Of a DNA stretch of 64,000 nucleotides, positions 9,356 through 58,037 are shown piece by piece; the stretch's first letter is position 1; each line of letters starts with the position of its first letter. Below the pieces are notes generated by a model. The model worked only from the letters and a program-made list of their open reading frames with translations, did not search any database and was not told the DNA's origin. A program made the position numbers and the translations under genes. Source of the DNA: an uncultured bacterium (GTDB taxonomy: Bacteria > Patescibacteriota > Minisyncoccia > Phycocordibacterales > DATDWN01). The DNA lies in contig CAIOTC010000020.1 of the NCBI GenBank assembly GCA_903861205.1, positions 133,273-197,272 of the forward strand, given 5' to 3'.

Positions 9356-9463
9356 GGCTCAAACAATGCTTTTCCGTCGCCAGAATATTTTTCTGCTGAA
9401 AAATTTCTTCCTGCTCGCCTCTTCACGGGCTCCGCAATGCGACGGAAAAGCATTGTTTGAGCC
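9356..9463 (+). repeat. family-B element, copy 1: 66-nt conserved core in the loop of a 25-bp stem
   Basis: Core CGTCGCCAGAATATTTTTCTGCTGAAAAATTTCTTCCTGCTCGCCTCTTCACGGGCTCCGCAATGCGACGG; stem ggctcaaacaatgcttttccg/cggaaaagcattgtttgagcc. Confidence 0.6.
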
Positions 9464-9471
9464 GATTTTTT

Positions 9472-12417
9472 CTAAACTATCACAAAGTTCAGCAACCTAT
9501 CCTGAATATGAATTGTTTTAACAATTTTTTTGCCGGACAGCCACTTATCCACATCCGGCATTTTCTGGGCCAAAGAAACCGCCTCGTCCTGCGTTTGGCC
9601 GGCCGGAACAGTCATTTGGGCTCGCACTTTGCCGTTTATTTGGACGACAAAAGATACTTCGCTTTCTTTCATTTTTTTCGGATCGGCCTTGGGCCATTTT
9701 TGCGCCGATAGAGATTTTTTATTACCAACAACCTGCCACAATTCCTCGGCAATATGCGGAGCAAACGGAGACAGAAGCAAAATCAATTTTTCGTATTGCT
9801 CGCGAGAAACTTTTTCCGCTTTTTCGAATTCATTAACCAAAATCATCATGGCACTAATAGCCGTGTTGAAATGCATCGTCTCGATATCGTCCGTAACTTT
9901 TTGGATTGTTTTGTGGAGTAGAGTTTCTGTCGTAGCTAACGCCTTATTTTTTTCATTGGCAAGGGTGCCCCTTGCCACTTTGAATTGCAGTCGCCACACG
10001 CGTTCCAAAAAGCGTCGCGATCCGGAAATGCTGTTCGTATCCCACGCGATGGCCTGATCAAACGGACCCATAAACATTTCGTAAACGCGCAAAGTATCGG
10101 CGCCGTACATTTTGACAATATCGTCCGGATTTATGACATTTCCGCGCGATTTTGACATTTTTTCGCCATTTTCAGCCAAAATCATGCCGTGCGAGGTGCG
10201 TTTTTGGTAAGGCTCCTTTGTCGGCACGAGTTTCTGATCATACAAAAATTTGTGCCAAAATCGCGAATAAAGCAGATGCAAAGTGGTGTGTTCCATGCCG
10301 CCGTTGTACCAATCAACAGGAGTAAAATATTTTAAATTTTTTGGATCAGCAAATTTTTTGCTATTTTTTGGATCGGCGTAGCGCAGGTAGTACCACGACG
10401 AACCGGCCCAGTTTGGCATTGTGTCCGTTTCTCGCCTGGCTTTGCCGCCACATTGCGGACATTTAGTATTAACCCACGATGAAATGTCAGCCAGCGGAGA
10501 CTCGCCAGTGTCAGTCGGTTTGTAATTTTTCACCTTTGGCAAAACAAGCGGCAAATCTTTTTCCGGAATAGCGATCCAGCCGGGGTTTGCAAGCTCACCT
10601 TCTGAAAATTCTGATTTTGAATTTTTATTGGAAATTGGAAATTGGAAATTGGAAATTCGTTTTTTGCAATTTTCGCAAAAAACGGTCGGTATCGGCTCGC
10701 CCCAATATCTCTGGCGCGAAAAAATCCAATCGCGCAGTTTGAAAGTTTCCACCCATTTTCCTCCGGCGAATTCGGTGATTTTCTTTTTTACATCTTCGCT
10801 AGACAATCCATTGAATTCTCCAGAATTTATCGAAACACCTTCATCGCAAAAAGCATGAACTGGATTATTAAATCGATCGTCCCAAATAAAAAATTCCGCG
10901 CATTTCAAATTTTTGTCTGATTTCAATTCCTGCCAGCTCATCCAAGCGACTTCGTGCTTATTTTTTTCATCTTCAGTCACAATGGCTCTTTTTTCACTAG
11001 CCAACTCGAAAACTATCGTGCTGAAATGTGCCTTTCTGTTTTCATCTTTATGCTCAGCGTAAAAATGACACTCCACCGGACCGCCGAGAGTTTTGATGTA
11101 TTTCAATTCGCTGTAACCTGTCTCCTCCAAAATTTCGCGTCGAGCAGCCTCAATTACGTCTTCACCTCCCTCAACTCCGCCGGTCACAAATGTCGTCCAT
11201 GGAAATTTTTTCCAGCGCAAAGTCAAAATCTTTTTTGTTTTTGGATCGATGATGATGGCGTGAATGGCATTTCTTTCGACGGTTTTTTTGTCCGCTCTCG
11301 GAAGTTCAGTTTGGTCAGTTACTTTTGGCACAATCACTTCGCGAATCGGCAAATTGTACTTTTGGGCAAATTCAAAATCGCGATCATCATGAGCCGGCAC
11401 GGCCATGACGGCACCCGTGCCATAGTCAGCCAAAACGTAGTCGGCAATGAAAATCGGAACCAGCTCACCATTGGCCGGATTTATTACCCTGATGCCTTTC
11501 ATTTCCACGCCGGTTTTTTCTTTCTTGTCATCCATCCTGTCAATGGCCGATTTGGTCGAAACGGATTTTATATAATTTTCGACTTCTTGTCTGTTTTTCA
11601 AAAATTCCAAAAGTTTGCCGACCATTTTGTGTTCGGGAGCCAGCACTATATATGTCACCCCAAAAAGCGTATCAGGGCGCGTGGTAAAAACTTTTATTTT
11701 ATCCTTTTGGCATTGGCAGAAAAAATCAATCTCGGCGCCTTCGCTTCGGCCGATCCAATTTCTCTGCTGCGTTTTTATTTGTGGCAAATAGTCGACGAGG
11801 TCGAGATCCTTGTCCAATCTGTCGGCGTATTTGGTGATAGCCAGCATCCACTGCTCCTTTTCGCGCTTTTCCACCGGCGTGCCGCACCTCTCGCAACAGC
11901 CACCCACCACCTCCTCGTTGGCCAAACCGATTTTATCTTTCGGACACCAATTAATCGACATTTTCTTTTTGTAAGCCAAACCATTTTTGAACATCTGCAG
12001 AAAAATCCACTGCGTCCATTTGTAATATTTTGGGTCAGTCGTGTTTATTTCCCGCGACCAGTCAAAAGACATTCCCAATCCTTTAAATTGTTTTCTGAAA
12101 TTATCGGTATTCGTTTTTGTGACAATGGCTGGTTGAATCCCAGTTTTAATCGCATAATTTTCCGTCGGCAAACCGAAAGCATCCCAACCAATTGGAAAAA
12201 GAACATTAAAATCTTCCATCCTGCGTTTACGAGAGATAACATCCATTGCGGTATAACCGCGAACATGACCGGTGTGAAGTCCGTCACCGGACGGGTACGG
12301 AAATTCCATCAAAGAATAATACTTTTTGCCTTTGCTTTTGGCCTGGAAAGTTTTTTTTCTTTCCCATTCTTTTTGCCATTTTTTTTCAATAGATAGATGG
12401 TTGTACTCTTTTGGCAT
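9472..12417 (-). CDS. leuS: leucine--tRNA ligase carrying an inserted Nudix-hydrolase domain (residues approx. 378-500)
   Basis: HTGHVRGYT (HIGH), TTRPDT editing motif, KMSKS; Nudix box GGVEGGEDVIEAARREILEETGY in the insertion. Confidence 0.93.
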   Translation of the reverse strand: MPKEYNHLSIEKKWQKEWERKKTFQAKSKGKKYYSLMEFPYPSGDGLHTGHVRGYTAMDVISRKRRMEDFNVLFPIGWDAFGLPTENYAIKTGIQPAIVTKTNTDNFRKQFKGLGMSFDWSREINTTDPKYYKWTQWIFLQMFKNGLAYKKKMSINWCPKDKIGLANEEVVGGCCERCGTPVEKREKEQWMLAITKYADRLDKDLDLVDYLPQIKTQQRNWIGRSEGAEIDFFCQCQKDKIKVFTTRPDTLFGVTYIVLAPEHKMVGKLLEFLKNRQEVENYIKSVSTKSAIDRMDDKKEKTGVEMKGIRVINPANGELVPIFIADYVLADYGTGAVMAVPAHDDRDFEFAQKYNLPIREVIVPKVTDQTELPRADKKTVERNAIHAIIIDPKTKKILTLRWKKFPWTTFVTGGVEGGEDVIEAARREILEETGYSELKYIKTLGGPVECHFYAEHKDENRKAHFSTIVFELASEKRAIVTEDEKNKHEVAWMSWQELKSDKNLKCAEFFIWDDRFNNPVHAFCDEGVSINSGEFNGLSSEDVKKKITEFAGGKWVETFKLRDWIFSRQRYWGEPIPTVFCENCKKRISNFQFPISNKNSKSEFSEGELANPGWIAIPEKDLPLVLPKVKNYKPTDTGESPLADISSWVNTKCPQCGGKARRETDTMPNWAGSSWYYLRYADPKNSKKFADPKNLKYFTPVDWYNGGMEHTTLHLLYSRFWHKFLYDQKLVPTKEPYQKRTSHGMILAENGEKMSKSRGNVINPDDIVKMYGADTLRVYEMFMGPFDQAIAWDTNSISGSRRFLERVWRLQFKVARGTLANEKNKALATTETLLHKTIQKVTDDIETMHFNTAISAMMILVNEFEKAEKVSREQYEKLILLLSPFAPHIAEELWQVVGNKKSLSAQKWPKADPKKMKESEVSFVVQINGKVRAQMTVPAGQTQDEAVSLAQKMPDVDKWLSGKKIVKTIHIQDRLLNFVIV
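9957..9979 (-). repeat. in-frame palindromic mini-insert GTGGCAAGGGGCACCCTTGCCA inside leuS (encodes KVARGTLAN)
   Basis: Identical 23-24 nt shared with cysS and recR; perfect 10-bp stem with a 3-nt loop. Confidence 0.75.
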
Positions 12418-12442
12418 TACATTATTCTACACGAAAAATCAT

Positions 12443-13375
12443 CTATTGCAATGGCACCATCGGTACATTTTTATATTGCGAAACTGGAATCGATTCGTCG
12501 AAACAATAATGTCCGGCCGGATGCGCCCACGTATCTCCATTCATGTATGGATATGTCTGAACTTGAACACCGGCGTCTTTCGAATCTTTGTTGAACGTCG
12601 CGCACAACTGATAAGCCTTAGCGCTCTGGCCGATCAAAACGTATTCGTATGGCTTTTGGGTTTGAGAATCAACCGGAATCGAAGAATAATTTACTCCCGA
12701 CAAATCGGAAATTTTATCCGGCAAAGTTCCTTTTGTTTGATAATAATTTTGCACTTGATAATTTATATTTTGCAAATCGGAAACTTTCTGGCTGTCGTAT
12801 TTTATGAGTTGTTGTGAGCGAGGAGAACCAATAATGGCAAATCCCCAAACAATAGAAGCGAGAAGCAAACAAACAGCGCCAACCAACCAAGCTTTTCGCG
12901 ACATCGATGTCAGTTTGTTGCGAATGTCAGAAATATAGAACATGAAAACCATCAAGATGACGACAAAAACAGCCAAAATTTTCATGAGAAAACCGGCGGT
13001 TAATTCCTGGCCATCAAGGAAATAATACAGAACCGTTACCAAATCGCCCGCTAACGTCAATCCGGCGATGAAAAGTGTAATGTAAGTCAGCCAGCGTCGC
13101 ACGCCGAGATTTTTCTTTTCCGGTGCGGTGACATAATCCCTTTCGAGAAGCCACATAAGTAATACGTAAATCGGGAAGAAAATAATGAGCGTAGACAGCG
13201 GAAAACTGATTGAGGCGCTACTACCGTAATAATAAGTGGTGATTTGCGGATAAGCGACATTGATGACAGTGAAAAGCAAATTGAGCAAGGCAATGACTGA
13301 CGTGAATAACGCGACAATGGCGCCAAGATTCAAAAAGAAATCTTTGGCCGATGTTTTTTGTGTTTGTGGTTCCAT
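12443..13375 (-). CDS. hypothetical polytopic membrane protein
   Basis: Multiple hydrophobic helices; probable start MEPQTQK. Confidence 0.5.
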   Translation of the reverse strand: MEPQTQKTSAKDFFLNLGAIVALFTSVIALLNLLFTVINVAYPQITTYYYGSSASISFPLSTLIIFFPIYVLLMWLLERDYVTAPEKKNLGVRRWLTYITLFIAGLTLAGDLVTVLYYFLDGQELTAGFLMKILAVFVVILMVFMFYISDIRNKLTSMSRKAWLVGAVCLLLASIVWGFAIIGSPRSQQLIKYDSQKVSDLQNINYQVQNYYQTKGTLPDKISDLSGVNYSSIPVDSQTQKPYEYVLIGQSAKAYQLCATFNKDSKDAGVQVQTYPYMNGDTWAHPAGHYCFDESIPVSQYKNVPMVPLQ

Positions 13376-13408
13376 AGAATAATAGTTAATTTGTAATAGA
13401 TGTATTAT

Positions 13409-13527
13409 AACACAAAACAAAAACAAACATAATTTTGGAGCACGGATATTTTTCTGCTGAAAAATTCCTCAAGCCTCCGCCCGCCGGCGTCCGGAGTCTC
13501 CAAAATTATGTTTGTTTTTGTTTTGTT
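13409..13527 (+). repeat. family-B element, copy 2 (divergent core, 30-bp perfect stem)
   Basis: Stem aacacaaaacaaaaacaaacataattttggag / ctccaaaattatgtttgtttttgttttgtt; loop keeps ATTTTTCTGCTGAAAAATT. Confidence 0.55.
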
Positions 13528-13528
13528 A

Positions 13529-14566
13529 TCAAATTCTAAACTCCACAACATCACCATCCTTGACCACATACTCCTTCCCTTCCGTTCTCACAAGCCCTTT
13601 TTCGCGGGCCTTCGCGTAGGAGCCGGCAGAGAGCAGTTTGTCCCATTCGATCACTTCGGCACGAATAAATTTGTCGCGGAAGTCGGTGTGAATGGCCATG
13701 CCAGCCACGGGCGCAGTGCTATCGCGAACAATCGTCCAAGCGCGCGACTCGTCCTCACCGGTCGTGAAATATGTCATCAGGTTCAAAGTCTCGTACGCTT
13801 TTTTGATAAGATCGTCAAAACCTTTTTCAAAAATCGGATCAACTTCGACGTACGGCCCGGGAATTCCCGCCTCGTCGGTGGGCAAATTTTCTTTCACTTC
13901 GGTCAAGTTTTTGGCCGCTGCTTCTGAAGCGTTGAGCACATACAAAATTGGCTTCATGCTCAAAAGTTGCAAAAGTTTTACGTATTCGATTTCCTTTTCG
14001 TCCAAACTAGCAAGAACTGTTCTTGCTAGTTTACTGTCCTCTAAAACTTTTTGGATTTTGGCCAGTGCCTCACCCTCTTCGACCGCTTCTTTTTTGTGAG
14101 ATTTGATATCCTTTTGCAGACCGGCGCGGCGTTTTTCCACCGTCTGCAAGTCCGCTAAAATAAGTTCAAGGTTTATGACCTCAATATCGGAGAGCGGATC
14201 GATTTTATTGTGCACGTGAATGATATCTTTGTCCTCGAAAATCCGCACCACCTCAGCGATGGCATCCACCTCACGAATATTCTGCAAAAATTTATTGCCG
14301 AGCCCCTCACCCATCGATGCGCCCTTGACCAGCCCCGCGATGTCGACAAACTCCACCACGGCCGGAATGGTTTTGGCCGACTTGCTGAACTCCGACAATT
14401 TCCACAGTCGATCGTCCGGCACCGGCACAATCCCGACCGACGGATCAATCGTGCAAAAAGGATAATTCTCCGCCGGCACGGCTTTTTTTGTCAGCGCATT
14501 AAAGAGCGTCGACTTGCCGACGTTCGGGAGGCCCACGATTCCTATACTTAGAGCGGAAGACGTCAT
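13529..14566 (-). CDS. ychF: ribosome-binding ATPase YchF (Obg-like)
   Basis: GIVGLPNVGKSTLFNALT G1 motif; TGS-like C-terminus DGDVVEFRI. Confidence 0.92.
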   Translation of the reverse strand: MTSSALSIGIVGLPNVGKSTLFNALTKKAVPAENYPFCTIDPSVGIVPVPDDRLWKLSEFSKSAKTIPAVVEFVDIAGLVKGASMGEGLGNKFLQNIREVDAIAEVVRIFEDKDIIHVHNKIDPLSDIEVINLELILADLQTVEKRRAGLQKDIKSHKKEAVEEGEALAKIQKVLEDSKLARTVLASLDEKEIEYVKLLQLLSMKPILYVLNASEAAAKNLTEVKENLPTDEAGIPGPYVEVDPIFEKGFDDLIKKAYETLNLMTYFTTGEDESRAWTIVRDSTAPVAGMAIHTDFRDKFIRAEVIEWDKLLSAGSYAKAREKGLVRTEGKEYVVKDGDVVEFRI

Positions 14567-16259
14567 TGTTTTTGTTTAAATTATCGTGTTGTGTAGCGTC
14601 CGAGCCATAGCTATATTCAGGACAGAAGAAGACATAAATTTCGCTTAGATTTATTAGACCGTACACTTGCAAGTCATTGGTGCCAGCCAGCACTTTGTTA
14701 ATAACTTGTCTAATAATGGCCTGTTTTGCTTTAAAATTCAAGCCCTTGAGTTTTTGTAATGCTTCCCCTGCAAACATTTTAACCTCGTCTTCGTTCGGTA
14801 ACAGCACATCATCCTTTGTTACGGCTTCCAAATGAGCTTTGTTTATTTGATCTTCAAATGAACGAATTTTTTCTCGCAAGGGTTTTACATATTCTTCAAA
14901 CTTCTCAAGTGTGATAACTTCCTGAGCATATGCTTTGGCAAAGCGGTCCTCTTGCGATCGCAATTTTACGATTTCTTTTTGCGTCAGATCGGTATCAATT
15001 GACATTTTGTTCAGCACATTATTTCCGCGAGTATTTTTCCATCGCTCGATTTGCTCAAGCAGCAAAGTCGGTGAACTCATAACCTCTTTCATTCTTTCCC
15101 ATACAGCCTCGTCGGCAATTCTGGCGTTGATTCCTGGTTGTTTGCATGTCGGAGGAAATGGAAATGTATGGACACGATTGGTGCATCTGTAATAGAGGTG
15201 TTTGCCTTTCTGCACACCTTCCCCTGCCCTTCTGCCACCACAGACACACCAAATCATGCCAGCCAAGAGATATTCGTTTACTTTGTTTCTGCCAAGAGTC
15301 TCAAAATTCTTTTTCAATCGCAATCCAGCCCGTATAAACAAATCTTTGTCTTCGATAATCGCAGGGACTGTTATCGGGTACCATTCAGTTTTTGGTCTCA
15401 TTTTCCTGCTAGTCTTTTTTATTTTCCTGTACTTTTCAAATTTTTTCGGATTTTCTGGAACTACCGCATATGATGCTCCCCAGTATGTCGTGCCGATAAA
15501 AACCTCGTGTCTTAACAATGTGCTGAGAGTGCTTGTACTCCAAACACCTTTAAGACTTTTTCTTGGTTTTATACCAGTTTTTTGCAACTCTCTGACAACA
15601 CCCCTGACAGTCAATCCATCATCAGCAACCATTTTAAATATATTCTTTATAACATTCGCTTCATATTCGTTGATTTCGTAATGACCGACAACATACTCTG
15701 GAGTTCCGCGTTTTCCTTTGTTTGGAATGTAGTTATAGCCGTATGGAGCTTCGCTGGTCAGGACATGGCCATTTTTAACTCTGCTAATTTTTCCTAATCG
15801 AAATCTTTCTTTGATCTTCATGCGTTCATACTCAGCAAAAACACCTCTCATTTTATACATGATGACATCCTCGTCATTTTTTGGTGGAGGTATAGTAACA
15901 AAAAGTACAGGAATCTCCAGCTCCGATAATTCTTCTATTATCAGTTCTTGCCAAGCACCTCGTCTTGCTAATCGATCTGGGTCATAGGTAAGCACGGCAT
16001 CCCAAATTCTCTTTTTTGCATCAATTCGTAACTGATCAAGATCTGGCCGATACAGTATGTCCCCGCTCCATCCCTCGTCTTTGTATGTTTTAACAATTTC
16101 AAAACCGTGTTCTTTGGCATAAGAATTTACTTCTGCTAGTTGGACCTCAATTGTCTGTTGGTCCTCCTGATTTGAGGTTGAGACCCTTGCATACAAGGCT
16201 ACGAATTTGATGTTTTTTTGTGTTAATTCAATCATGGTTTTGTTGTTATATTTTAGCAA
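14499..16259 (-). CDS. large serine recombinase / integrase (resolvase domain + recombinase domain + zinc ribbon); C-terminus overlaps the ychF 5' end by about 68 nt
   Basis: ALYARVSTSNQ catalytic Ser motif; CVCGGRR...YYRCTNR zinc ribbon; long coiled-coil C-terminus. Confidence 0.85.
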   Translation of the reverse strand: MLKYNNKTMIELTQKNIKFVALYARVSTSNQEDQQTIEVQLAEVNSYAKEHGFEIVKTYKDEGWSGDILYRPDLDQLRIDAKKRIWDAVLTYDPDRLARRGAWQELIIEELSELEIPVLFVTIPPPKNDEDVIMYKMRGVFAEYERMKIKERFRLGKISRVKNGHVLTSEAPYGYNYIPNKGKRGTPEYVVGHYEINEYEANVIKNIFKMVADDGLTVRGVVRELQKTGIKPRKSLKGVWSTSTLSTLLRHEVFIGTTYWGASYAVVPENPKKFEKYRKIKKTSRKMRPKTEWYPITVPAIIEDKDLFIRAGLRLKKNFETLGRNKVNEYLLAGMIWCVCGGRRAGEGVQKGKHLYYRCTNRVHTFPFPPTCKQPGINARIADEAVWERMKEVMSSPTLLLEQIERWKNTRGNNVLNKMSIDTDLTQKEIVKLRSQEDRFAKAYAQEVITLEKFEEYVKPLREKIRSFEDQINKAHLEAVTKDDVLLPNEDEVKMFAGEALQKLKGLNFKAKQAIIRQVINKVLAGTNDLQVYGLINLSEIYVFFCPEYSYGSDATQHDNLNKNNDVFRSKYRNRGPPERRQVDAL

Positions 16260-16265
16260 ATAATT

Positions 16266-16481
16266 TTAAATATTGTCTTGTCGACTTATACCCCTATCCT
16301 TCAGCACCTCCTCGAACAGAATGTCAAAAGCGTTATTAATTCGCTCTTCCACATTGTCATCCTCCATCCAATATGTCACATGCAATCCTTGGACCACGGC
16401 AGAATCAAAAGTTACTTTGTCTTTTGCATTTAGCAAATCAACACAGAACACTTCCAACACCTCATTTTCTAAATTACTCAT
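16266..16481 (-). CDS. small acidic hypothetical protein (possible recombination directionality factor)
   Basis: 71-aa ORF immediately upstream of the recombinase. Confidence 0.3.
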   Translation of the reverse strand: MSNLENEVLEVFCVDLLNAKDKVTFDSAVVQGLHVTYWMEDDNVEERINNAFDILFEEVLKDRGISRQDNI

Positions 16482-16559
16482 ATTTTTTTGGTTATTCGCA
16501 GAGTGATTCCTGCCCGCCCGTCGAAAATCAGACGGACAGAGTCACCCCGCGATGGTTTT

Positions 16560-35125: not shown

Positions 35126-35216
35126 GGTGGAAAATTTTTAATTTTTAATTTAAAATTTTTAATGAATTTTTAAATTAAAATTTGATCATTGCAAATTCAT
35201 TTTAAATTTTAAATTG
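35126..35216. repeat. AT-rich intergenic repeat, copy 3
   Basis: Between the two tandem permease genes. Confidence 0.55.
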
Positions 35217-36488
35217 TTATTCATATCTCAGTGCCTCAATCGGATCGAGTTTCGCCGCTTTGTACGACGGATACAAACCGAAAATAACGCCTGTCAAAAT
35301 GGAAACCCCGACAGCAGAAATAATCGACATTGGCGAAATAACAAAAGCCCAATCGTAACCGAGATATTGCATCAAAATGGCCATGAGGAAAGAAACAATC
35401 GCGCCGAGAACAATTCCGATGAATCCTCCGATCGATGTCAGTGTGCCGGCCTCGAGCAAAAATTGGTTTCGGACATTTGAATTCGTCGCGCCAACCGCTT
35501 TGCGCAAACCGATCTCGCGTGTTCTCTCGGCCACCGTCACCAGCATAATATTGAGAATGCCGATACCGCCGACGAGAAGCGCGATGGCCGCCATCGACGT
35601 CAAAAATAAACTCAAAGCCGAGGTGATGGTGGTGAGCAGCGAAACCGCCGTGGCCGTACTGCGCACAGTAAAATCGATATTGTCGATACTTTGAATGTGA
35701 TGTGTCTGCGACAAAACTCTGGTAACGTCGGCAATAGTTTGATCGATATTTTCCGAGGCATCAACTTTCAAATTGATGGCTTGCAAATAATGGATGCCGA
35801 GAAGCTGTCCTTGGCCAATGGCTATTGGCAAAAAAACTTGGTCGTCTTGGTCCTGGAAAAAAACTGTACCGCGAGGAGTGACCACGCCGACAACGCGCAG
35901 TGGAACTCCGCCGGGTTGCGACTGCGAAGCACTGCGAACTTTGACCACTTGTCCAATCGGATCAACACCGGTGCCGGCGAAAAGTTCGTTGGCCACCGTT
36001 GAACCGAGCACGACAACATTGGCTCCCCCGTCAGCGTCTTGCGGCGCCATGAATTGGCCTTCTTGCATCGTAATATTGACCACTTTGGTGTAACCGGAAT
36101 CGGTCCCGACGAAATTTGTGTCCGCGGTTTTGTTTTGCCAAGCCACGGTCACCGTTCCGCGCACCAAGGAGTTGACCGCGACTGAATGCGGAACATTTGT
36201 CGGACTACGCAGAGCGTCGGCGTCAGTGTTAACAAGCGAGGTTGTAATAATTCCGTAAACTTGCGCCGGCGGACCTTTCGGATCGCTCGCGCCCGGTTGG
36301 ATGGAAAGTAAATTCGAACCAAGCTTGTTGACCTGACCAAGCACCAGAGTCTGCGCTCCGGCGCCGAGAGAAATGATAATAATAACTCCAGCCACCCCAA
36401 TAACAATACCGAGCATGGTCAAAAACGACCGGCCCTTGCGCGCCATTAAATTGCGAATGGTCATTTTGATGGTGGAAAGAAAGTTCAT
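35217..36488 (-). CDS. ABC transporter permease, MacB/FtsX family (tandem paralog)
   Basis: Same architecture as 33875..35125; C-terminus KLDPIEALRYE shared. Confidence 0.85.
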   Translation of the reverse strand: MNFLSTIKMTIRNLMARKGRSFLTMLGIVIGVAGVIIIISLGAGAQTLVLGQVNKLGSNLLSIQPGASDPKGPPAQVYGIITTSLVNTDADALRSPTNVPHSVAVNSLVRGTVTVAWQNKTADTNFVGTDSGYTKVVNITMQEGQFMAPQDADGGANVVVLGSTVANELFAGTGVDPIGQVVKVRSASQSQPGGVPLRVVGVVTPRGTVFFQDQDDQVFLPIAIGQGQLLGIHYLQAINLKVDASENIDQTIADVTRVLSQTHHIQSIDNIDFTVRSTATAVSLLTTITSALSLFLTSMAAIALLVGGIGILNIMLVTVAERTREIGLRKAVGATNSNVRNQFLLEAGTLTSIGGFIGIVLGAIVSFLMAILMQYLGYDWAFVISPMSIISAVGVSILTGVIFGLYPSYKAAKLDPIEALRYE

Positions 36489-36605
36489 AAATACAAATTT
36501 TTAATTTAAAATTTAGAATTTAGAATGAATTTAAAATGACAAAATTTAAAAATTTAAAATTCTAAATTTATTTTAAATTATAAATTCTAAATTTTAAATT
36601 GTATT
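36489..36605. repeat. AT-rich intergenic repeat, copy 4
   Basis: Between the permease and the ABC ATPase. Confidence 0.55.
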
Positions 36606-37322
36606 TTACTTCTTCAACACTCCATCAGCCGTGGCGATTGTGCGCTTGGTCACTTTTTCATCGCCGACAATCATGCCGTCTTTGATGTGAATGATGCGTT
36701 TGGCGTGATTGGCCGTGTCCATTTCGTGAGTGACCAATATAATAGTGTGTCCTTTGTTGTTGAGCTCCTGCAAAATGGACAACACGGAATTGCCGGATTT
36801 CGAATCAAGATTTCCTGTCGGTTCGTCGGCAAAAATAACGGCCGGGTCGCACACGAGAGCGCGAGCGATGGCCACGCGCTGTTTTTCGCCGCCGGAAATT
36901 TGGTTGGTGAAAAATTCCAAACGATGCGACAGCCCGACAGCCGCCAGCGCTTTTTTGGCCAAGTCTTCCTGGTTTAATTTTTTGCTGTAAATGAGTGGCA
37001 ACCGGACGTTGTCAAGAACTGTCGTGCGTGGTAAAAGGTTGAACGATTGGAAAACGAAACCAATACGCTCGTTGCGGAGTTTGGCCAAATAATCTTTGTC
37101 GAAATTTTTGGTGTCGCGGCCTTCAAACTCAAAAAGTCCGGATGTCGGCCGATCGAGAAAACTCAAAATGTGCATCAAGGTCGATTTGCCGGATCCGGAC
37201 GGTCCCATGATGGCCACGAATTCACCGAGCTCCATGTTGAAATCGACGCCGTGCAAAACCGGAGTCAAAACTCCTTCGTTCTCGTAATCCTTTTTCAGAT
37301 TTTCTACGTGGATTAAACTCAT
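36606..37322 (-). CDS. ABC transporter ATP-binding protein (MacB/LolD-type)
   Basis: [39 protein letters not shown]. Confidence 0.9.
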
Positions 37323-39450: not shown

Positions 39451-39540
39451 AACACTTTTCCGTCGCCAGAATAATTTTCTGCTGAAAATTTTCTTCCTCC
39501 TCGCCTCTTCACGGGCTCCGGAATGCGCCGTAAAAGTGTT
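39451..39540 (+). repeat. family-B element, copy 3, between divergent genes 39017..39415 and rpmA
   Basis: Near-identical core; stem aacacttttccg/cgtaaaagtgtt. Confidence 0.55.
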
Positions 39541-48720: not shown

Positions 48721-48724
48721 AAAA

Positions 48725-50306: not shown

Positions 50307-50315
50307 TTTCGTATT

Positions 50316-50342: not shown

Positions 50343-50410
50343 CCGTCAGCACAAAATCAAGAAACATTTTCAAAAATAAAACCGCCCTGATTGATGTCAG
50401 AACGGCCGAT

Positions 50411-50866: not shown

Positions 50867-50963
50867 ACTTTTAATATACCACCTTTTCCTCCTTTTTTCA
50901 ACTACAAACAAAAAGGGCGCTGTGGGCGGCCCTTGGATTTCGCGGGTGGGGAAAATAGAAAAG

Positions 50964-51407
50964 TTAGACTCGACAAATCAAACACTCGCATGTTTTTTCT
51001 TTTTTCACCCAATCGATTATGTGCTCGATACTGACTTTGTCCCTTATTGCTCTGCTTGCGACAAAACGCAAAATAGCGATGTCTTCGCTGCTTCCCGTCA
51101 CTTGTGCAGAAACTTTTGCAGACCTTCTAAGGCGCTTCCGATCGTACTCATCTATGGAATTTTTTACCTTCTCCGCCACTTCATTCGCTCTCCTATGCTC
51201 AAACTTTACAAGCTCCTCTATGCAAAAAAGACAAGCTGTGGTTTGATCCTCAAAACCAACACACGGCACATTATGCCTTTCGCAGTACAAGCCGTTCTTT
51301 TTCGAGCAATCAACACAAGAAAACACGGCCAGACCACCATCCGGCGACCGAACCGGCACCAAAATTGCACGACTCATGTCTCCGTTATTGCAAAAATGGC
51401 AATTCAT
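50964..51407 (-). CDS. Cys-rich hypothetical protein
   Basis: CHFCNNG, CVDCSKK, CLFC, CECLIC pairs; same conserved leader upstream. Confidence 0.4.
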   Translation of the reverse strand: MNCHFCNNGDMSRAILVPVRSPDGGLAVFSCVDCSKKNGLYCERHNVPCVGFEDQTTACLFCIEELVKFEHRRANEVAEKVKNSIDEYDRKRLRRSAKVSAQVTGSSEDIAILRFVASRAIRDKVSIEHIIDWVKKEKTCECLICRV

Positions 51408-51411
51408 ACGT

Positions 51412-51438
51412 CCCCTTTCCGCCCAGAACTCTACCACT
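51412..51438 (-). promoter_or_regulatory. conserved 27-nt leader AGTGGTAGAGTTCTGGGCGGAAAGGGG upstream of the 50964..51407 gene
   Basis: Second copy, ending 4 nt before ATGAATTGC. Confidence 0.45.
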
Positions 51439-51515
51439 AACCCGACTTTCAGTCAAAAGTTTCAAACAGAAGTTTTTACCATAATTTATATTTATAATAC
51501 TGATATTCCCTTATT

Positions 51516-51539
51516 TCATTCGCCTTGGACGGCGAATGA
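51516..51539. promoter_or_regulatory. palindrome TCATTCGCC-N6-GGCGAATGA just downstream of the ArsR-family gene stop
   Basis: Copy 2. Confidence 0.4.
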
Positions 51540-51543
51540 AATT

Positions 51544-51822
51544 TTAGAAATTTGAGATAATTGCACGAGTAGTTACTGATAGGTCATCAGATATTTTATA
51601 TAACACGAAATGACCGTCGTATTGGCGATTCAAAATTCCCTTTTTTGCGAGAAATAGCAAATGTTTTGAAATAGCTTTGAATGATGCACCTGTGCCGTCT
51701 GCTATTTCGCCGACCGATCCGCTTTTCTTTTCCTTCAGAAATTTCAAAATTGTTAGCCGATGTTCATTGGCGAAAATTTCAAATATTTCTTTCAGTTCTT
51801 TAACTTCTTTAGAAATCATCAC
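51544..51822 (-). CDS. ArsR/SmtB family transcriptional regulator
   Basis: FANEHRLTILKFL...GSVGEIADGTGASFKAISKHLLFLAKKGIL wHTH. Confidence 0.8.
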   Translation of the reverse strand: MMISKEVKELKEIFEIFANEHRLTILKFLKEKKSGSVGEIADGTGASFKAISKHLLFLAKKGILNRQYDGHFVLYKISDDLSVTTRAIISNF

Positions 51823-51826
51823 ACAT

Positions 51827-51852
51827 TTAATATAACATCATTCGCCGTCTAC
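51827..51852. promoter_or_regulatory. palindrome ATCATTCGCC-N4-GGCGAATGAT immediately upstream of the ArsR-family gene start (candidate operator)
   Basis: Copy 3; 5 nt from the start codon. Confidence 0.45.
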
Positions 51853-51912
51853 GGCGAATGATGTTTGTGGGGGAAAATTGTCTGTCACTTGTCACCTGCC
51901 ATCTGCGATCTA

Positions 51913-52317
51913 CTATCTGTTCAGATATGTGACAGTTAGTTGCAGTACCGTGGCGAAAGAAACCCAGAGGAGATATGGGATTTGCATGTAGGCAATCCAC
52001 GGGATGATGGGAAAAATTGCGAATGTTGCCCAGATGAGAGTGGCAAGAACAAGCAAAACATCCGCGGCGGCGAGATAATAATTTTTGAGACCAAACAGAA
52101 AGTAAGTGAAGGAAAAGTTGAAAACAAGATTGAGAACGAACGGCAATGCTATGGTTGCCGGAATTTGATGTGCCAGAGTTTTGTAAAAAACCGCGCCGAA
52201 CGAAATGGCAATAAGACAATATAGAAACGTCCAAACCGGACCAAAGATCCACGCCGGCGGCGCCCACGACGGCTTTTTAAATTCTCTGTAAGATTCGTAC
52301 GTTTTCATTCCTTTCAC
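51913..52317 (-). CDS. tspO: TspO/MBR family tryptophan-rich sensory protein
   Basis: PSWAPPAWIFGPVWTFLY, 5 TM helices. Confidence 0.82.
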   Translation of the reverse strand: MKGMKTYESYREFKKPSWAPPAWIFGPVWTFLYCLIAISFGAVFYKTLAHQIPATIALPFVLNLVFNFSFTYFLFGLKNYYLAAADVLLVLATLIWATFAIFPIIPWIAYMQIPYLLWVSFATVLQLTVTYLNR

Positions 52318-52682
52318 TTATTTTTAAGATTTTTTTTGTTTTGGAATAGAAGAACGATAAAATAGATAACTGAAAATAGTGATGATAACACCAGAGCCAT
52401 GAGTGTGCGATCAAAGCAAACTATACCAGAGCATAGAGGTTCAACCTTTGATAATAAAATAAAATCTATAACACCAAAAATTATAACTGTTAAAAAAACT
52501 AACTTGGGTTTGATGTTTTTCAAAAAACCAGCCAAGAACAACAATAATGTTAGTGGTAGTAAAGTCCCAAACATCGGATGAAATAATTCTGTGTTATAGA
52601 TGCTAAAATAACTAATGTTTAAATAAATAACTAACATAACTAAAACAAACAACATTGTGGGAAAAATAAATATTTTTTTCAT
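52314..52682 (-). CDS. hypothetical small membrane protein
   Basis: Three hydrophobic helices. Confidence 0.4.
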   Translation of the reverse strand: MKKIFIFPTMLFVLVMLVIYLNISYFSIYNTELFHPMFGTLLPLTLLLFLAGFLKNIKPKLVFLTVIIFGVIDFILLSKVEPLCSGIVCFDRTLMALVLSSLFSVIYFIVLLFQNKKNLKNK

Positions 52683-52683
52683 A

Positions 52684-55314
52684 TCAACTTAAATTATCTA
52701 ATAATCCATTCAATAAATCAAGCAGAAGTTGTGCATCGGTTTTTGATAATCGTTTTGGTTTCGGTTTTTTTGGATCAGGTTTTGACAATTTATTTTCCAA
52801 AACAGTTTTGAATCTGTCAGCTTTCAGTTTAGCTTTGTCCACTTTTCCTTTTTGGATTGACTTGATTATGTTATCAACTCTTTTATCAAAAGCGTTCTTT
52901 TTGGTTTGAGTCAGATCCAGGGAATCAATTGTAGTCTGCATGATTTGCAAATATGTAATTGGATCAAAAGTGGAATTTGGAGTGAGAGTGAAATCTGTTT
53001 TACCATCTCCAGTCACATCCAGGGTCATCTGTGGCACGCCATTCTGGCTTTCAGTTATTTCCGCTTGCGTTTGTGTGGTTACTGGAATATCGATAAATGA
53101 AGATGTACTGGACTGTCCATTTGGACTTACAGTTTCTGCATCAAAAGTAAACGTCCCGACATCCGTGCCTTGAATTATTATTTTTTGCACACCATCTTGA
53201 GGAATATTGAGATACTTGCCCTCGCCAAATTCGTAATATCCGGAGTTTGGTATATTTTCTTCCGTGTAGCAAATATCCGTTGTTGGCGGACACACTTTGC
53301 CCGTGTGATTTCCACTTGCGTCGTATGCATCAAGCGTTACCGGCGAATGAACCGAGAGACGAAGGCGGTTTTTTATATCAATCGGAGAAGTGGTACTTAG
53401 ATATGTAGAAGATATTTTAGTAGATTGAATTATACTTGAAACAAAATCAAGGAGTGGCTGGACTTCTAAAATATTCTTGTGTTCATTTTTTGGATCAAGC
53501 GGAAATTTATCGTTGTTGTATTTAAACATATTCACCCACCACCTCTCCCCTTCCATTCCCAACGCACTCGGGGTCACCACAGTCTTGTCACCGTCAGATG
53601 TAAAGATTGGTTTTTCATCAAGAATAAATTTTCCGGTACATCCATTGTCGGTCGCATATGAACAAGTCGTGCTTGCGTTGTATTGAAAACCGGCAATGGT
53701 ATCCAACCCCCAACCGGCTATTTGAATAAGACGAATATTTGATGGCAAAGTCATCTTGTCAATCCGGTTATGTGTAGCATCTGCTTGTGTCAAAAAATTC
53801 GTGCCGAGTTTGATGGGCTTCAAAGTATCAAGCGTGCCTGGATTTGTTCTGCCGTCGCTACCAGCCAAAAAACTGTTTTCGGAATCATAATCTGAAATAC
53901 TCTGACCATACCACTTGATATCATTTGTCATATATGGATCAAGGGTGTTCGGCACAAAATATGTGACCGGTGTGGAAACATGATTGTAATATTCTCGACT
54001 GGGCAAGAGTGTATAACCCCCGGGCATGTTGCGACCCAGCTCGCGAGCAGTCGGAGTGTTGAGAAGCAAACCAAGTCCCAAGTCCTGATCATATCCGTGG
54101 AGAAGCGCGGGAATAGCCGTCGGTGTGCCAAACTGAGGCACTGCCACAAGCATGACGGTATCGATGTGATCTATCAAACTATTTCTCCCGGCTATTTTGT
54201 CATCCTCAAGTTTTTTCAAAAGTAATTTCGCGACAATACCGCCGTTACTGTGCGCCACGATCGTGACCTTGCCGGTATTTGACGAATTTACCAACGACTG
54301 CAACGTATCCAAAAGAGAAATCTCGCTAGCAATATCATCCGGACTTTGCCGCCAATCATAGGCAAAAGCTCGCCACTCCGCCATCTTTTTTGACGAGGTC
54401 GTCTCCACTAAACTATCCATCGTTTTGGCAAAACTTTTATAAATATTCTGACCCAAAAATCCCATCCAAAACGGCACATTTGATTCTAGTATAATATCTC
54501 GCGTGTAAATATTTGGATTTATACTTTGACCGGAAGAGTTTAGGTACAGATCAACCCCATCGCTATTCCAGTTTGGCTCCCACAGTTGGTCCTCGATAGG
54601 CACACCTAAAATGGTTTTTGTTGTATACAACCGACTGGCCTCGAGGCCAGGCAAAAAGAGCACATTGGAGTAACCTGTCACAGGCGGTGTGTACTGACCA
54701 GTCAGCGTGGCCGAGACGGTTATTTTGTTTTGCACGACAGCGTACGCAACATTTTGGTCAAATAATTTCTTAACCAAAACGGGCGGATCGACGGAATACA
54801 CAGAAATATTGCAAGTAAATGTTTGGCCCTTGAGCGATTGCGGAAGCGGATCACCGTTTATTTCCGGATTGTAGTCTGCCGGGCACTGGCCTTCGAAACA
54901 CGGTGAAGTGATGGTAATGTTCCAATTGTCGGAAGTGTCACTCGCGCCATTTATTTCACCTGTTGCGTCTGTGTTGTAAAAATCACTGGCATTTTGTTCA
55001 AAACCGATTTCGGTCGACTCTTCATTTTTCGGCGACAAAGATATGTAGGGACAAAGATCGTTATCGTAATAATTTGAACGGCTGATGCGATATTTTGCTC
55101 CGCCTATTGCATAGTTAAAATACGGAATATATTTTGGATCGAGAGAAATGGAAAACGGCGTAGTGGTGCTTTGAAGCGAGTCAAGATAGAGACCGCCAAT
55201 AGACGAAATATTAACGACATAGTTCGCAAAAAACGCAGTGGCAAACGGCGCAACAAAGAAAAATATGAGGATCGAAAAAATCACATAGGCCAACCTCAAA
55301 TACAACTTTTTCAT
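52684..55314 (-). CDS. large secreted protein with alpha/beta-hydrolase (lipase/PGAP1-like GxSxG) domain
   Basis: N-terminal TM/signal; VTIVAHSNGGIVAKLLL nucleophile elbow. Confidence 0.55.
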   Translation of the reverse strand: MKKLYLRLAYVIFSILIFFFVAPFATAFFANYVVNISSIGGLYLDSLQSTTTPFSISLDPKYIPYFNYAIGGAKYRISRSNYYDNDLCPYISLSPKNEESTEIGFEQNASDFYNTDATGEINGASDTSDNWNITITSPCFEGQCPADYNPEINGDPLPQSLKGQTFTCNISVYSVDPPVLVKKLFDQNVAYAVVQNKITVSATLTGQYTPPVTGYSNVLFLPGLEASRLYTTKTILGVPIEDQLWEPNWNSDGVDLYLNSSGQSINPNIYTRDIILESNVPFWMGFLGQNIYKSFAKTMDSLVETTSSKKMAEWRAFAYDWRQSPDDIASEISLLDTLQSLVNSSNTGKVTIVAHSNGGIVAKLLLKKLEDDKIAGRNSLIDHIDTVMLVAVPQFGTPTAIPALLHGYDQDLGLGLLLNTPTARELGRNMPGGYTLLPSREYYNHVSTPVTYFVPNTLDPYMTNDIKWYGQSISDYDSENSFLAGSDGRTNPGTLDTLKPIKLGTNFLTQADATHNRIDKMTLPSNIRLIQIAGWGLDTIAGFQYNASTTCSYATDNGCTGKFILDEKPIFTSDGDKTVVTPSALGMEGERWWVNMFKYNNDKFPLDPKNEHKNILEVQPLLDFVSSIIQSTKISSTYLSTTSPIDIKNRLRLSVHSPVTLDAYDASGNHTGKVCPPTTDICYTEENIPNSGYYEFGEGKYLNIPQDGVQKIIIQGTDVGTFTFDAETVSPNGQSSTSSFIDIPVTTQTQAEITESQNGVPQMTLDVTGDGKTDFTLTPNSTFDPITYLQIMQTTIDSLDLTQTKKNAFDKRVDNIIKSIQKGKVDKAKLKADRFKTVLENKLSKPDPKKPKPKRLSKTDAQLLLDLLNGLLDNLS

Positions 55315-55400
55315 GTTGTATTAATTTTAACAAACAAAAAACTTCATGAAAATGAAGCTTTTTGTTTGACTGTGGATAACAATATTGAAAACGCGTCAAA

Positions 55401-55844
55401 TTATTCCGCTTCAATAATTACTGTCACTTCAGCTCTTTTGCCCAGAGCTTCGACTGTCACTTTGTGTTCTCCTACAGTTTTGAGCGGCTTTTCCAAAACA
55501 ACCGTTTCCGGATCGAGGTTCAAGTGTGTTTGTTTGAAAATTTCTTCAATCAAAGTTTCCTTGCCGATGCCGGCGAACAAGTGGCCTTTTTCGTTGGCCT
55601 TGCCTTTAATGGTCACCGTCGCAGCGCGCAAAGCGTCCAAACTTTTGACCAAAAGTTCCGCCTGAATTTTTTTCTCGGCGCCTTCTTTTGATTTCATCTG
55701 TTCGATTTTTTGGATCGACTGCGGAGTAGCCGCCTCCACCAATCCGCGCGGAATGAGAAAATTGAGCGCGTGTCCGTCGGAAACGTCTTTAATATCGTAC
55801 TTGTGACCAAGTTTAGGAACTTCTTTGAGTAATATGACTTTCAT
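55401..55844 (-). CDS. rplI: 50S ribosomal protein L9
   Basis: MKVILLKEVPKLG...ALNFLIPRGLA. Confidence 0.9.
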   Translation of the reverse strand: MKVILLKEVPKLGHKYDIKDVSDGHALNFLIPRGLVEAATPQSIQKIEQMKSKEGAEKKIQAELLVKSLDALRAATVTIKGKANEKGHLFAGIGKETLIEEIFKQTHLNLDPETVVLEKPLKTVGEHKVTVEALGKRAEVTVIIEAE

Positions 55845-55957
55845 AATATTAGGAATAATTTTTAATTTTTAATTTAGAATTTTTAATGAATTTTTAATTT
55901 TTAAGTTTTGTCATTTTAAATTCATTTTAAATTAAAAATTTTAAATTTTAAATTATT
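55845..55957. repeat. AT-rich intergenic repeat, copy 5
   Basis: Between rplI and ctpA. Confidence 0.55.
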
Positions 55958-57310
55958 TTACTTATCTAATATTTCCACCGCTTTTTCCATCTGCGTATCT
56001 TCCCCTTTCAAAAACTTTGCCTCGTCCAACTTGACCACCACGTCCGGCGTCAAACCTTGGTGTGAAATCGAAATGCCGTTCGGTGTCAGCCATTTAGCGA
56101 TGGTTACTTTGAGTGATGTGTTGTCGGTGATCGACACCAATTCCTGGACCGAACCTTTGCCGAACGATTGCTCGCCGACTAAAGTGGCCACGCCATTGTC
56201 ATGCAAAGCGCCAGCCAAAATTTCCGAAGCGCTGGCCGATCCACCGTCGATGAGCACTACCAATTTGAGTTGGTCGCTGAAAATGTTGTAACCTTTGCTG
56301 CGATAAACGGTGTTGTCGGTGTTGTTGCGGAAGTCCTCGCTGACAACCGTCTTGCCCGCCGGCAAAAACCAGCTGGCCATATCGATCGCCGCTTCCAAAT
56401 ATCCGCCGGGGTTGCCACGCAAGTCGATAATCAGTTTTGATTTGCCCGACTCGACAAACGATCGCAAAGAGTTGCGAAAAAGATCAGGAGAAATAGCGTT
56501 GAAACTGTACAAATGAATAACATACACGTCGCCAGTGTTGTCCGGACTCTTTCCGGACGCGCCAGAGTTGCTTGACAGTGCGCCTTTGGTTTCGGTGTCG
56601 ATGGTTGGCAGGTCGATAACATCGCGAACGATGGAAATTTCAAACGGATCTGCCACACCGTCGCGAACGATGAGTAGTTTGACAGTCGTGCCTTTTGGAC
56701 CACGAATCAGTTTGATGGAATCTTCGGTGGAAAGTTTAGCTGTCGGCGTTTTGTCAACCTGAACCACTTTGTCGCCCGCTTTCACTCCGGCTTTTTGGGC
56801 CGGCGAACCTTTCAGCGGAGAAATGACGGTGAGGACGTTGTCGCGAATGCCGACTTCCATGCCAACACCCTCGAAGTTACCGCTGATTTCTTCATTGAAA
56901 TTTTTGTTTTCAACGGGCGGGAAAAAAGTTGTGTAAGGATCGCCCAGAGAATCCACCATGCCGGAAATCGCGCCCCAAACGCGGGCTTGATCATCCACGT
57001 TAGTTGTGGTCGTGCTGTTTGTTGGTACATATTTTTCGTTGATCGTCTGCCAAGCTTTCCAAAACGGCGCAAAGTCAACATTGGTCACGCCATTTGCGTC
57101 TTTGTCAGTTACATTCGCTACTTTCGCTTCGGCCGGTGTGTAATCGCGTCCCAGAAAAAAACCGGAGGAAAAAATGGCAAGCACCACAACCGCGCCAACA
57201 AAATATTTCGGCTGTTTCGCCAACCCCCAAACTTTCAACGCACCATTTTTAATTTTCGCTTTTATATTCTGCATTCCGTTCATTATCGCAAAGTTTAACG
57301 AAGTGGTCAA
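55958..57310 (-). CDS. ctpA: carboxyl-terminal processing protease (S41 family)
   Basis: PDZ (GVKAGDKVVQVD), DLRGNPGGYL, LIDGGSASASEI. Confidence 0.85.
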   Translation of the reverse strand: MTTSLNFAIMNGMQNIKAKIKNGALKVWGLAKQPKYFVGAVVVLAIFSSGFFLGRDYTPAEAKVANVTDKDANGVTNVDFAPFWKAWQTINEKYVPTNSTTTTNVDDQARVWGAISGMVDSLGDPYTTFFPPVENKNFNEEISGNFEGVGMEVGIRDNVLTVISPLKGSPAQKAGVKAGDKVVQVDKTPTAKLSTEDSIKLIRGPKGTTVKLLIVRDGVADPFEISIVRDVIDLPTIDTETKGALSSNSGASGKSPDNTGDVYVIHLYSFNAISPDLFRNSLRSFVESGKSKLIIDLRGNPGGYLEAAIDMASWFLPAGKTVVSEDFRNNTDNTVYRSKGYNIFSDQLKLVVLIDGGSASASEILAGALHDNGVATLVGEQSFGKGSVQELVSITDNTSLKVTIAKWLTPNGISISHQGLTPDVVVKLDEAKFLKGEDTQMEKAVEILDK

Positions 57311-57326
57311 ACTTTAACTTACAACA

Positions 57327-57444
57327 CAAAATCAGAAAGAATCACTTTTCCGTCGCCAGAATAATTTTCTGCTGAAAATTTTCTTCCTGCTCATGTCTTC
57401 ACGCATTCCGCAATGCGCCGGAAAAGTGATTCTTTCTGATTTTG
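57327..57444 (+). repeat. family-B element, copy 4
   Basis: Core about 95 % identical to copy 1; stem caaaatcagaaagaatcacttttccg/cggaaaagtgattctttctgattttg. Confidence 0.6.
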
Positions 57445-57568
57445 TTAGTGGTGATTTTGTATTCGTATTTCAAAGTTTAACCTTGAAAAAAGTTGTCACA
57501 GAAAAACCCGCTCACCGTAGTGGCAGGAATTCCTGTCGCTGGTGGGCGGGGGGTCATATAACGATGAG

Positions 57569-57796
57569 CTACTTATTACGATGTCGGCGTGGGAGGATGG
57601 TATACACAACCACGCGTACAATTTTTGGACCAGGACAACAACCCAAATCGAATTGATGACCTTCGCCATCGTTAATATACTTGTCCGCCAATGAATGAAT
57701 TGTGATGTTGCCCAATCCATTCACCTGGTCGTCCAAATATTCCAACGACTCGGTCAATCCGTTTGCTACCCCAACTTTAAAACTCTTTACTCTCAT
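57569..57796 (-). CDS. small hypothetical protein (75 aa) lying between two inverted family-B repeat copies
   Basis: GGTGGAGG SD 7 nt upstream of the ATG. Confidence 0.3.
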   Translation of the reverse strand: MRVKSFKVGVANGLTESLEYLDDQVNGLGNITIHSLADKYINDGEGHQFDLGCCPGPKIVRVVVYTILPRRHRNK

Positions 57797-57950
57797 GACT
57801 ACGCCTCCACCTATAATCATACACCATGTAGTGTAAAAAAGTCAACCCGCTTAAACAAATTCCAAAGGTCTGGCCTTTGGTGCCCAATTTCCCAAGGCCA
57901 GACCTTGGGTGCGAATCCGAAATCACCACTAAGCAAATTTTGTTGAGGAA

Positions 57951-58037
57951 ATTCATTTTGGGCGCATTGCGGAGCCCGTGAAGAGGCGAGCAGGAAGAAA
58001 TTTTTCAGCAGAAAAATATTCTGGCGACCAAAATGAG
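57951..58037 (-). repeat. family-B element, copy 5 (reverse orientation; inverted relative to copy 4, about 500 bp away)
   Basis: Reverse complement is identical to the copy-1 core over about 70 nt. Confidence 0.6.

Follow-up and report, generated by a model that had tools for sequence, protein, structure and literature searches.

A repeat family of Patescibacteria with a conserved three-way junction between variable arms, found between genes and in frame inside them

The 64,000-nt stretch analysed here (the window; positions 133,273 to 197,272 of contig CAIOTC010000020.1, from an uncultured member of the Patescibacteriota) carries five copies of a palindromic repeat that we call family B. 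A large part of bacterial diversity falls within the Patescibacteria; their genomes are tiny and are regarded as poor in repetitive DNA. All five copies are intergenic, form hairpins of 90-134 nt (folding z-scores -4.4 to -11.4), and are flanked by housekeeping genes of the ordinary kind (leuS, ychF, a sigma-like gene, a ctpA-type protease gene, corA, dinB, rpmA and cysS). As far as we found, family B is undescribed (our search of the literature turned up no such element of Patescibacteria); it is phylum-wide and has an unusual architecture, with a conserved centre and variable arms. We lean towards the view that it is a palindromic DNA repeat like the Rickettsia palindromic elements (RPEs), found here in Patescibacteria, and not an RNA gene. 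The copies in the window are:

9350..9469, + strand: copy 1, type II; match to model R1 at 9372-9447, 51.6 bits
13412..13526, + strand: copy 2, type I; match to model R1 at 13433-13505, 72.5 bits
39429..39562, + strand: copy 3, type II, in an S1 shell; match to model R1 at 39459-39532, 38.7 bits
57326..57445, + strand: copy 4, type II; match to model R1 at 57348-57423, 43.9 bits
57934..58056, - strand: copy 5, type II, inverted, in an S1 shell; match to model R1 at 57957-58032, 48.9 bits

A 20-nt pattern of the core motif has five matches in the window against 0.30 expected, and five were reached in 0 of 100 shuffles. The covariance model R1, built from type I copies in other genomes only and run with its filters switched off, gives five strong matches and no more (38.7-72.5 bits; E ~1e-11 to 4e-24, these E-values being rough); the remaining scores in the window are at most 19 bits and are mostly reverse readings of the same five copies. 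An earlier note, made from the letters of this DNA alone, had placed five copies of a long-stemmed hairpin with a conserved core at these sites and had proposed the covariance-model search. Reading, core pattern and model agree with it on the five positions, the model also recovers the wider family, and each copy does fold as the note described. The inner hairpin ATTTTTC-TGCT-GAAAAAT, which the note saw kept even in a divergent copy, is present in five of the five.

Every copy is a three-way junction composed of P1, a long copy-specific outer stem; P2, a near-invariant hairpin; and P3, a covarying hairpin. P2 reads GGATATTTTTC-TGCT-GAAAAATTCC with a bulged T (consensus G(G/A)A-T-A(T/A)TTTTC / TGCT / GAAAA(A/T)T-T(C/T)C), and P3 comprises 3 outer bp, an internal loop TC/TC(C), 4 inner bp and a loop. 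Copy 1, with the leuS stop codon (9472) on one side and the sigma-like gene's start (9270) on the other, has 31-nt arms at 97% complementarity (9350-9380 and 9439-9469) around a 58-nt three-way-junction core. Copy 2 starts immediately past the ychF stop codon, and its 29-nt arms are 100% complementary, in agreement with the perfect inverted repeat of about 30 bp that had been noted at 13409. The earlier note needs correcting in that copy 2 is of a different subtype (type I, the commonest in other genomes) than copies 1, 3, 4 and 5 (type II). Copy 4 again has 31-nt arms at 97% complementarity, and its P3 stem is compensated, with ATGT/GCAT instead of GCCT/GGGC. Many copies are enclosed by a conserved outer shell. 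Shell S1 is an A/T outer helix plus an internal loop TTACTC / TTCGAC, which takes the form TTAC / GAC in the window, where copies 3 and 5 are its members. Copy 3, with an Ada-like gene (-) on one side and rpmA (+) on the other, has 38-nt arms at 74% complementarity with an internal loop present; its shell (aaaatttc / aaaatttt and TTAC / GAC) surrounds P1 and the core. The shell of copy 5 is caaatttc-TTACGAG ... CTCAAC-aaaatttg, and its inner P1 is compensated (TTTTGG/CCAAAA). All type II copies have the inner 12 bp of P1 in common (CTTTTCCGTCGC / GCGnCGGAAAAG in copies 1, 3 and 4); the closing stems, reported before as unrelated, are not wholly so.

Outside the window, an exact 26-nt degenerate core pattern matched at least 111 genome stretches, nearly all of them Patescibacteria; these family counts rest on the listed matches that carry the exact pattern, with taxa assigned by record title. 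Among the matches listed, the carriers include Paceibacteria/Parcubacteria groups, Saccharibacteria, Uhrbacteria, Wildermuthbacteria and others, and a few contigs labelled Nitrospira or Gammaproteobacteria, which we suspect are mis-binned. Model R1 finds at least 139 copies in the fetched loci, often 2-3 per 8 kb, and inverted doublets 50-130 nt apart occur among them. About 0.8 Mb of contigs picked solely for a relative of the leucyl-tRNA synthetase (LeuRS) held a single copy, so carriage is patchy. Copies mostly do not keep their place relative to orthologous genes. Many begin within ~20 nt of a stop codon. By crude open reading frame (ORF) calling, the neighbouring ORFs are arranged (-,-) in 35 cases, (+,+) in 29, convergent in 20 and divergent in 19; orientation relative to genes is random. 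The element is also an assembly breakpoint: in three contigs from other samples that are 99.9-100% identical to the window (L112, L113 and L194), short-read assemblies of the same organism end inside copies 2 and 4. It is probably under-represented in metagenome-assembled genomes.

What the stems conserve is the ability to pair. In 122 distinct copies, paired cells amount to 92.8% (70.1% in shuffles), double changes occur at 24 of 25 pairs, and the covariation score is 0.524, against 0.142 when shuffled and 0.06-0.11 when partners are slid. Because the alignment had been fitted to the model, pairing is somewhat inflated, but the effect is large and visible in the raw sequences too. One-sided changes (wobble intermediates) are almost absent from the stems. 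Some divergent copies have the entire P2 stem swapped (ATCCGCC/GGCGGAT, AAAATCT/AGATTTT) and keep the TGCT loop, the bulged T and the CTC after P3a. The P2 stems therefore need only pair, and the unpaired bases are the fixed part. Overall, compensation in the stems is strictly Watson-Crick. The TGCT loop is conserved, as are the bulged T and the internal TC/TC loop. The arms behave likewise. Two copies on one contig (L072 and L074) have the core and 8 bp of P1 in common and unrelated outer arms; in three copies from Wildermuthbacteria the arms are related but diverge at many positions, and each copy is still self-complementary. The inner 20 bp of P1 contain phased purine, T-rich and A-rich tracts, so P1 is not derived purely from the locus. 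P3 accepts insertions, since in some copies (L029, L032, L069 and L079) an extra nested hairpin within it turns the three-way junction into a four-way one.

Strong covariation is also what speaks for a structured RNA, whether a family of small RNAs (sRNAs) or a cis-acting 3'-untranslated-region element, terminator or stabiliser whose junction is bound by an RNA-binding protein. The frequent start just past a stop codon points the same way, as do the S1-shell elements, which have A-tract/U-tract outer helices and lie downstream of a same-strand gene in 10 of 16 cases. However, an RNA read from one strand tolerates G-U pairs and not A-C. Over 2,936 cells we count 43 G-U and 35 A-C (G-U/A-C by helix: P1 21/19, P2 1/5, P3a 8/7, P3b 13/4), and the full arms hold 2022 Watson-Crick pairs, 66 A-C and 54 G-U. 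G-U is thus no commoner than A-C in the helices overall, and the pairing signature is DNA-like and not that of a single-strand RNA. Copies in sense and antisense to their flanking genes are about equally frequent (29 vs 35), the window has no excess of terminator-like sites (27 vs 22 expected), and an Rfam scan of the window, by gathering score and by E-value, gave no matching family, the E-value scan yielding only weak microRNA-type hairpin matches. Together with the copies inside essential coding sequences described next, these observations make an RNA improbable in our view, and the structured sRNA suggested by the earlier note does not fit Watson-Crick-only pairing, random orientation and in-frame intragenic copies.

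Fifteen of 132 copies lie in frame inside ORFs that are open for at least 60 codons, and mostly well over 100, on each side. Six are in sense orientation and nine in antisense. Pfam supports 10 of the 11 host ORFs that were scanned, the host ORF at locus L108 being without a match; the supported hosts are TsaD, PheT, two UvrD-like helicases, phosphoglucomutase (PGM), PmbA/TldD, RecG, Dus and ComEC. In several of them (TsaD, the UvrD-like protein at L081, Dus) the domain match is split into two or three stretches. When four loci with the element ~480 nt from ileS were aligned, the coding sequence was conserved on both sides and the element lay within tsaD; a TsaD lacking the element has its alignment gap exactly at the insertion point. 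The inserts add 25-60 residues to conserved host proteins. Of the core's six frames, one contains TGA; the other five are stop-free, and coding copies use all of them. Recurring element-encoded peptides are ...SATARARGIFQQKNIRA..., ...HGYFSAEKFLVLAPSRSQG... and ...DIFLLKNSSCS..., and the segments encoded within TsaD, PheT and similar proteins include GIFQQKNIR, HGYFSAEKFLVL and DIFLLKNSS. Arm complementarity, in Watson-Crick pairs per 30, is 21.6 for coding copies vs 19.7 for intergenic ones.

The presence of intragenic copies in both orientations rules out a terminator and an sRNA gene. The ordinary conserved terminator, which the earlier note had named as the explanation to which its own would give way, is excluded on this ground. 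An intrinsic terminator was also rejected when considered as such: tsaD, pheT, recG and further genes contain copies, others occupy divergent intergenic regions, and an A/U outer helix is found in S1 only. One could instead imagine an intron-like element, removed from transcripts after the P1 stem brings splice sites together. Its location inside conserved genes would suit such an element, and one report describes Patescibacteria as intron-rich (PMC13011429). But the host frame is open in every intragenic copy, only stop-free frames are used, and this strict preservation of the reading frame argues against an intron. The ORFs that abut intergenic copies are, moreover, different genes (LigA|GatC, SecY|Adk, IscS|NifU) and not halves of one. 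The 57-nt core is also far below the size of any known self-splicing intron. We regard an intron as the least credible of the explanations discussed here, with hardly any chance of being correct.

Some intragenic copies are retained at orthologous sites, in tsaD in four genomes and in pheT in 3-4 genomes. At the tsaD site, pairwise identity is 59-75% in the flanking coding sequence, 35-41% in the arms (which are effectively unalignable), 83% in the core and 93% in P2; despite their low identity between species, the arms still self-pair. Host-level selection fits the retention of the core at orthologous sites at least as well as selfish spread does.

Several observations weigh against the reading as an RPE-like palindromic DNA repeat. 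P2 at tsaD outdoes essential flanking coding sequence in conservation. No empty site or presence/absence polymorphism was found among relatives, which are either 99.9% identical or at ~55-60% LeuRS identity; exact-protein look-ups returned only near-identical short contigs ending in the element, and a metagenome LeuRS scan gave relatives at no more than 60% identity, without synteny. No consistent direct repeat flanks the five window copies or the listed copies from other genomes, so the target-site duplications for which a search had been proposed did not appear in the flanks examined. Conserved terminal repeats were not found, and outer arms differ even within one genome. No transposase is enriched near the 111 loci, where the neighbours are only housekeeping genes. 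In ~1.7 Mb of fetched loci we found a single IS200-type tnpA (with approximate queries), and it is not flanked by family B. This gene, at L019:3808-4239 (-) on a Zambryskibacteria contig, encodes a 143-aa IS200/IS605-type Y1 transposase and lies within a perfect 14-nt inverted repeat (CATGAGAATTCGGA); a family B copy lies 3.5 kb away, and no link between the two was found. Recombination or att sites, listed as candidates in the earlier note, are a possible reading, but no recombinase link was found. The exact core pattern has no match in the viral contigs of IMG/VR. Lastly, shells S1-S3 keep asymmetric internal loops at a fixed inner length of 92-96 nt.

These points give some room to the main rival, a DNA site that benefits the host, with the junction bound or processed by a conserved Patescibacteria protein and maintained by purifying selection and not by transposition. 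By analogy with REP-gyrase sites, Chi and uptake sequences, such a site might serve in the restart of replication, in recombination, in DNA uptake or in the nucleoid. Many Patescibacteria lineages have an identical 26-nt P2, and this, the retention at tsaD and pheT with P2 above its flanks, the phased T- and A-rich tracts in P1, and the lack of viral matches and of an associated transposase would all suit a host site. The patchy carriage would not (one copy per ~0.8 Mb of LeuRS-relative contigs vs several per 8 kb in carriers), nor would positions that mostly shift relative to orthologous genes; no partner protein was found, and three compensated stems would be superfluous for a double-stranded DNA binding site. 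We consider a host-beneficial site unlikely, though it is the alternative that we take most seriously.

If family B is instead an RPE-like DNA repeat, we postulate that it acts in folded form, as single-stranded DNA or as a cruciform. The unpaired bases could be the recognition surface for a putative protein, for example a single-strand DNA enzyme of the HUH/Y1 type, that would copy or maintain the element. Y1 HUH enzymes read the hairpins of IS200/IS605 and of repetitive extragenic palindromic (REP) sequences through loop- and bulge-type features. Arm complementarity might arise by one arm templating the repair or resynthesis of the other, through hairpin-templated correction or palindrome extension; intrastrand templated repair or extension is known from quasi-palindrome correction. 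Such templating would let the arms drift fast and yet always pair. The conserved asymmetric loops of the shells weigh against simple arm-to-arm copying, since such copying would erase them. An intragenic copy would persist only in an open frame and at a linker that can accommodate the added peptide. A more ambitious version, which we offer as speculation and think rather doubtful, is that a conserved Patescibacteria machine for single-stranded DNA recognizes the junction, with the core under phylum-wide purifying selection and the arms rebuilt by self-templated synthesis. If that were true, one would expect locus-specific inverted duplications rather than terminal repeats and target-site duplications.

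Shells are not restricted to family B. The S1 shell also holds other apical modules, among them a small loop (L085) and the three-way junction of a sister family, X, which has long variable arms, a 110-130 nt three-way junction and the near-palindrome TTGTCAAYGAsCC ... GGsTCrTTGACAA. The exact family X motif was found in the window only and in none of the other fetched loci. Its copies are:

31..227, + strand: X-family hairpin
8021..8216, - strand: X copy in an S1 shell like those of copies 3 and 5, with a 129-nt three-way-junction core
62436..62611, - strand: X copy, oriented opposite to the other two, with arms of 33 nt that are 97% complementary

The copy at 8021..8216 indicates that the shell accepts different apical modules. 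A GCTCG/CTCGC motif (a TC/TC loop, GA/GA on the opposite strand) occurs both in P3 and at the P1 foot of another shell. We tried and rejected several identities for shell features. S1-shell copies have TTAC to the left and TCAA to the right, which is suggestive of IS608-type cleavage sites, but the enclosed arms vary, which is not the end structure of IS200/IS605. For an integron attC site, the shell motifs TTACTC and TTCGAC are neither mutually complementary nor terminal, and RYYYAAC/GTTRRRY R-boxes are not present. A kink-turn or loop-E in the shell loop fits the reverse strand only, in some genomes only, and not in the window. A promoter reading, with TCGACA as -35 box, works for copy 3 alone.

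Copies 4 and 5 are inverted, ~530 nt apart, and flank one small gene:

57569..57796, - strand: orphan ORF of 75 aa with Shine-Dalgarno GGTGGAGG and promoter-like TTGACT-N18-TATGAT

This arrangement around an ORF with a Shine-Dalgarno sequence had been recognized in the earlier note, which likened it to a miniature cassette with terminal inverted repeats. The two copies and the intervening segment would then be a single mobile unit. Besides the inverted spacing, a motif of ~21 nt, TTAGTGGTGATTT (TTAGTGGTGATTTyGkATTCG), on the inner side of both copies favours a unit. The motif is also found after an unrelated X copy, at 62613, and each of copies 4 and 5 is a complete hairpin with its own, different arms. 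The protein has no Pfam family and no homologue besides itself among 5.8 billion proteins. Gene-less inverted doublets are common elsewhere. Our data contain no second instance of the unit and no empty site, the comparison that had been suggested; the sole other contig with the ORF is 99.94% identical, has the same arrangement and ends inside copy 4. A mobile cassette is therefore very improbable, and we see copies 4 and 5 as two separate members of a DNA repeat family. The motif TTAGTGGTKAWTT abuts the 3' side of copy 4 (57445-57457, +), of copy 5 (57920-57932, -) and of X2 (62613-62625, +); it has three exact matches in the window, and five with one mismatch vs 0.5 expected. It could be a target preference, a shell extension or a promoter element. 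Between copies 4 and 5, two GC-containing hairpins stand on either side of the orphan ORF, at 57497-57545 (cccgctcacc...ggtgggcggg) and at 57858-57917 (ccaaaggtctggcctttgg...ccaaggccagaccttggg). A replication origin at the switch in gene orientation near 57.9 kb could have accounted for the flip of copy 5 and X2, but the idea was dropped: DnaA boxes do not form a cluster there, and nothing can be read from GC skew.

Two further observations concern the rest of the window. AT-rich arrays of TAAATTT / TTTAAAT-like units, forming imperfect palindromes, take up several intergenic regions and probably represent another repeat family of the same genome:

33780-33873: AT-rich array, intergenic
35133-35215: AT-rich array, intergenic
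36476-36608: AT-rich array, intergenic
55831-55973: AT-rich array, intergenic
59034-59134: AT-rich array, intergenic

The leucyl-tRNA synthetase encoded at 9472-12417 (-) has a NUDIX domain (residues 382-501) right after its editing domain (219-377), an unusual fusion.

An RPE-like family B would be a second, independent and much broader case of the Rickettsia type of selfish DNA in protein-coding genes. There are practical consequences as well. The maintenance of hairpins at the DNA level yields strong covariation and can mislead searches for structured RNAs, and the element breaks metagenome assemblies and lengthens conserved proteins. A conserved centre with variable arms also raises the question of how palindromes are generated and maintained.

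Known palindromic elements resemble family B in different respects. MITEs (miniature inverted-repeat transposable elements) such as Correia, ERIC, RUP and YPAL are likewise non-coding repeats of less than 200 bp with long stem-loops; some MITEs have open frames fused into genes, and YPAL targets regions of dyad symmetry (PMC2229807). Of the three candidates in the earlier note, a MITE-like element comes closest, although family B is without conserved terminal inverted repeats, TA ends or target-site duplications and its conserved part is central. Like REP/REPIN-RAYT and IS200/IS605 systems, family B consists of short, multi-copy, mostly extragenic palindromes that often form inverted doublets. 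In those systems the hairpin shape and unpaired or bulged bases are recognized in single-stranded DNA, and the invariant loop and bulged T of family B may be recognized similarly. REP stems are conserved in sequence and have GTAG or CGTC as a tag at their foot (PMC3733652). Family B lacks such a foot tag, CGTC being confined to the P3 loop and to the inner P1 of type II; no element-flanked RAYT gene was found in the fetched loci, and no strand bias was detected. Long inverted repeats within protein-coding genes are also known from Nematomorpha mitochondria, where coding palindromes with both arms translated are reported (PMC6649704). Those repeats have no common conserved core, are organellar, and are lineage-restricted.

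The closest likeness in our reading is to the RPEs, which are 105-146 bp long, form long stem-loops, and occur between genes and as in-frame fusions in 19 protein genes (PMC2229807). Family B has the features of this class, being a multi-copy long stem-loop with copies between genes and in frame in conserved genes. Both are hairpin repeats of ~100-150 bp in host-dependent bacteria with reduced genomes, both add a peptide that is tolerated, and a transposase is known for neither (PMC2229807). They belong to different phyla, and no sequence relationship is claimed. RPE families are conserved over their full length, including terminal repeats, whereas family B keeps only the apical junction and its outer arms vary. 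And whereas RPEs stay within one genus, the core of family B spans many lineages of Patescibacteria.

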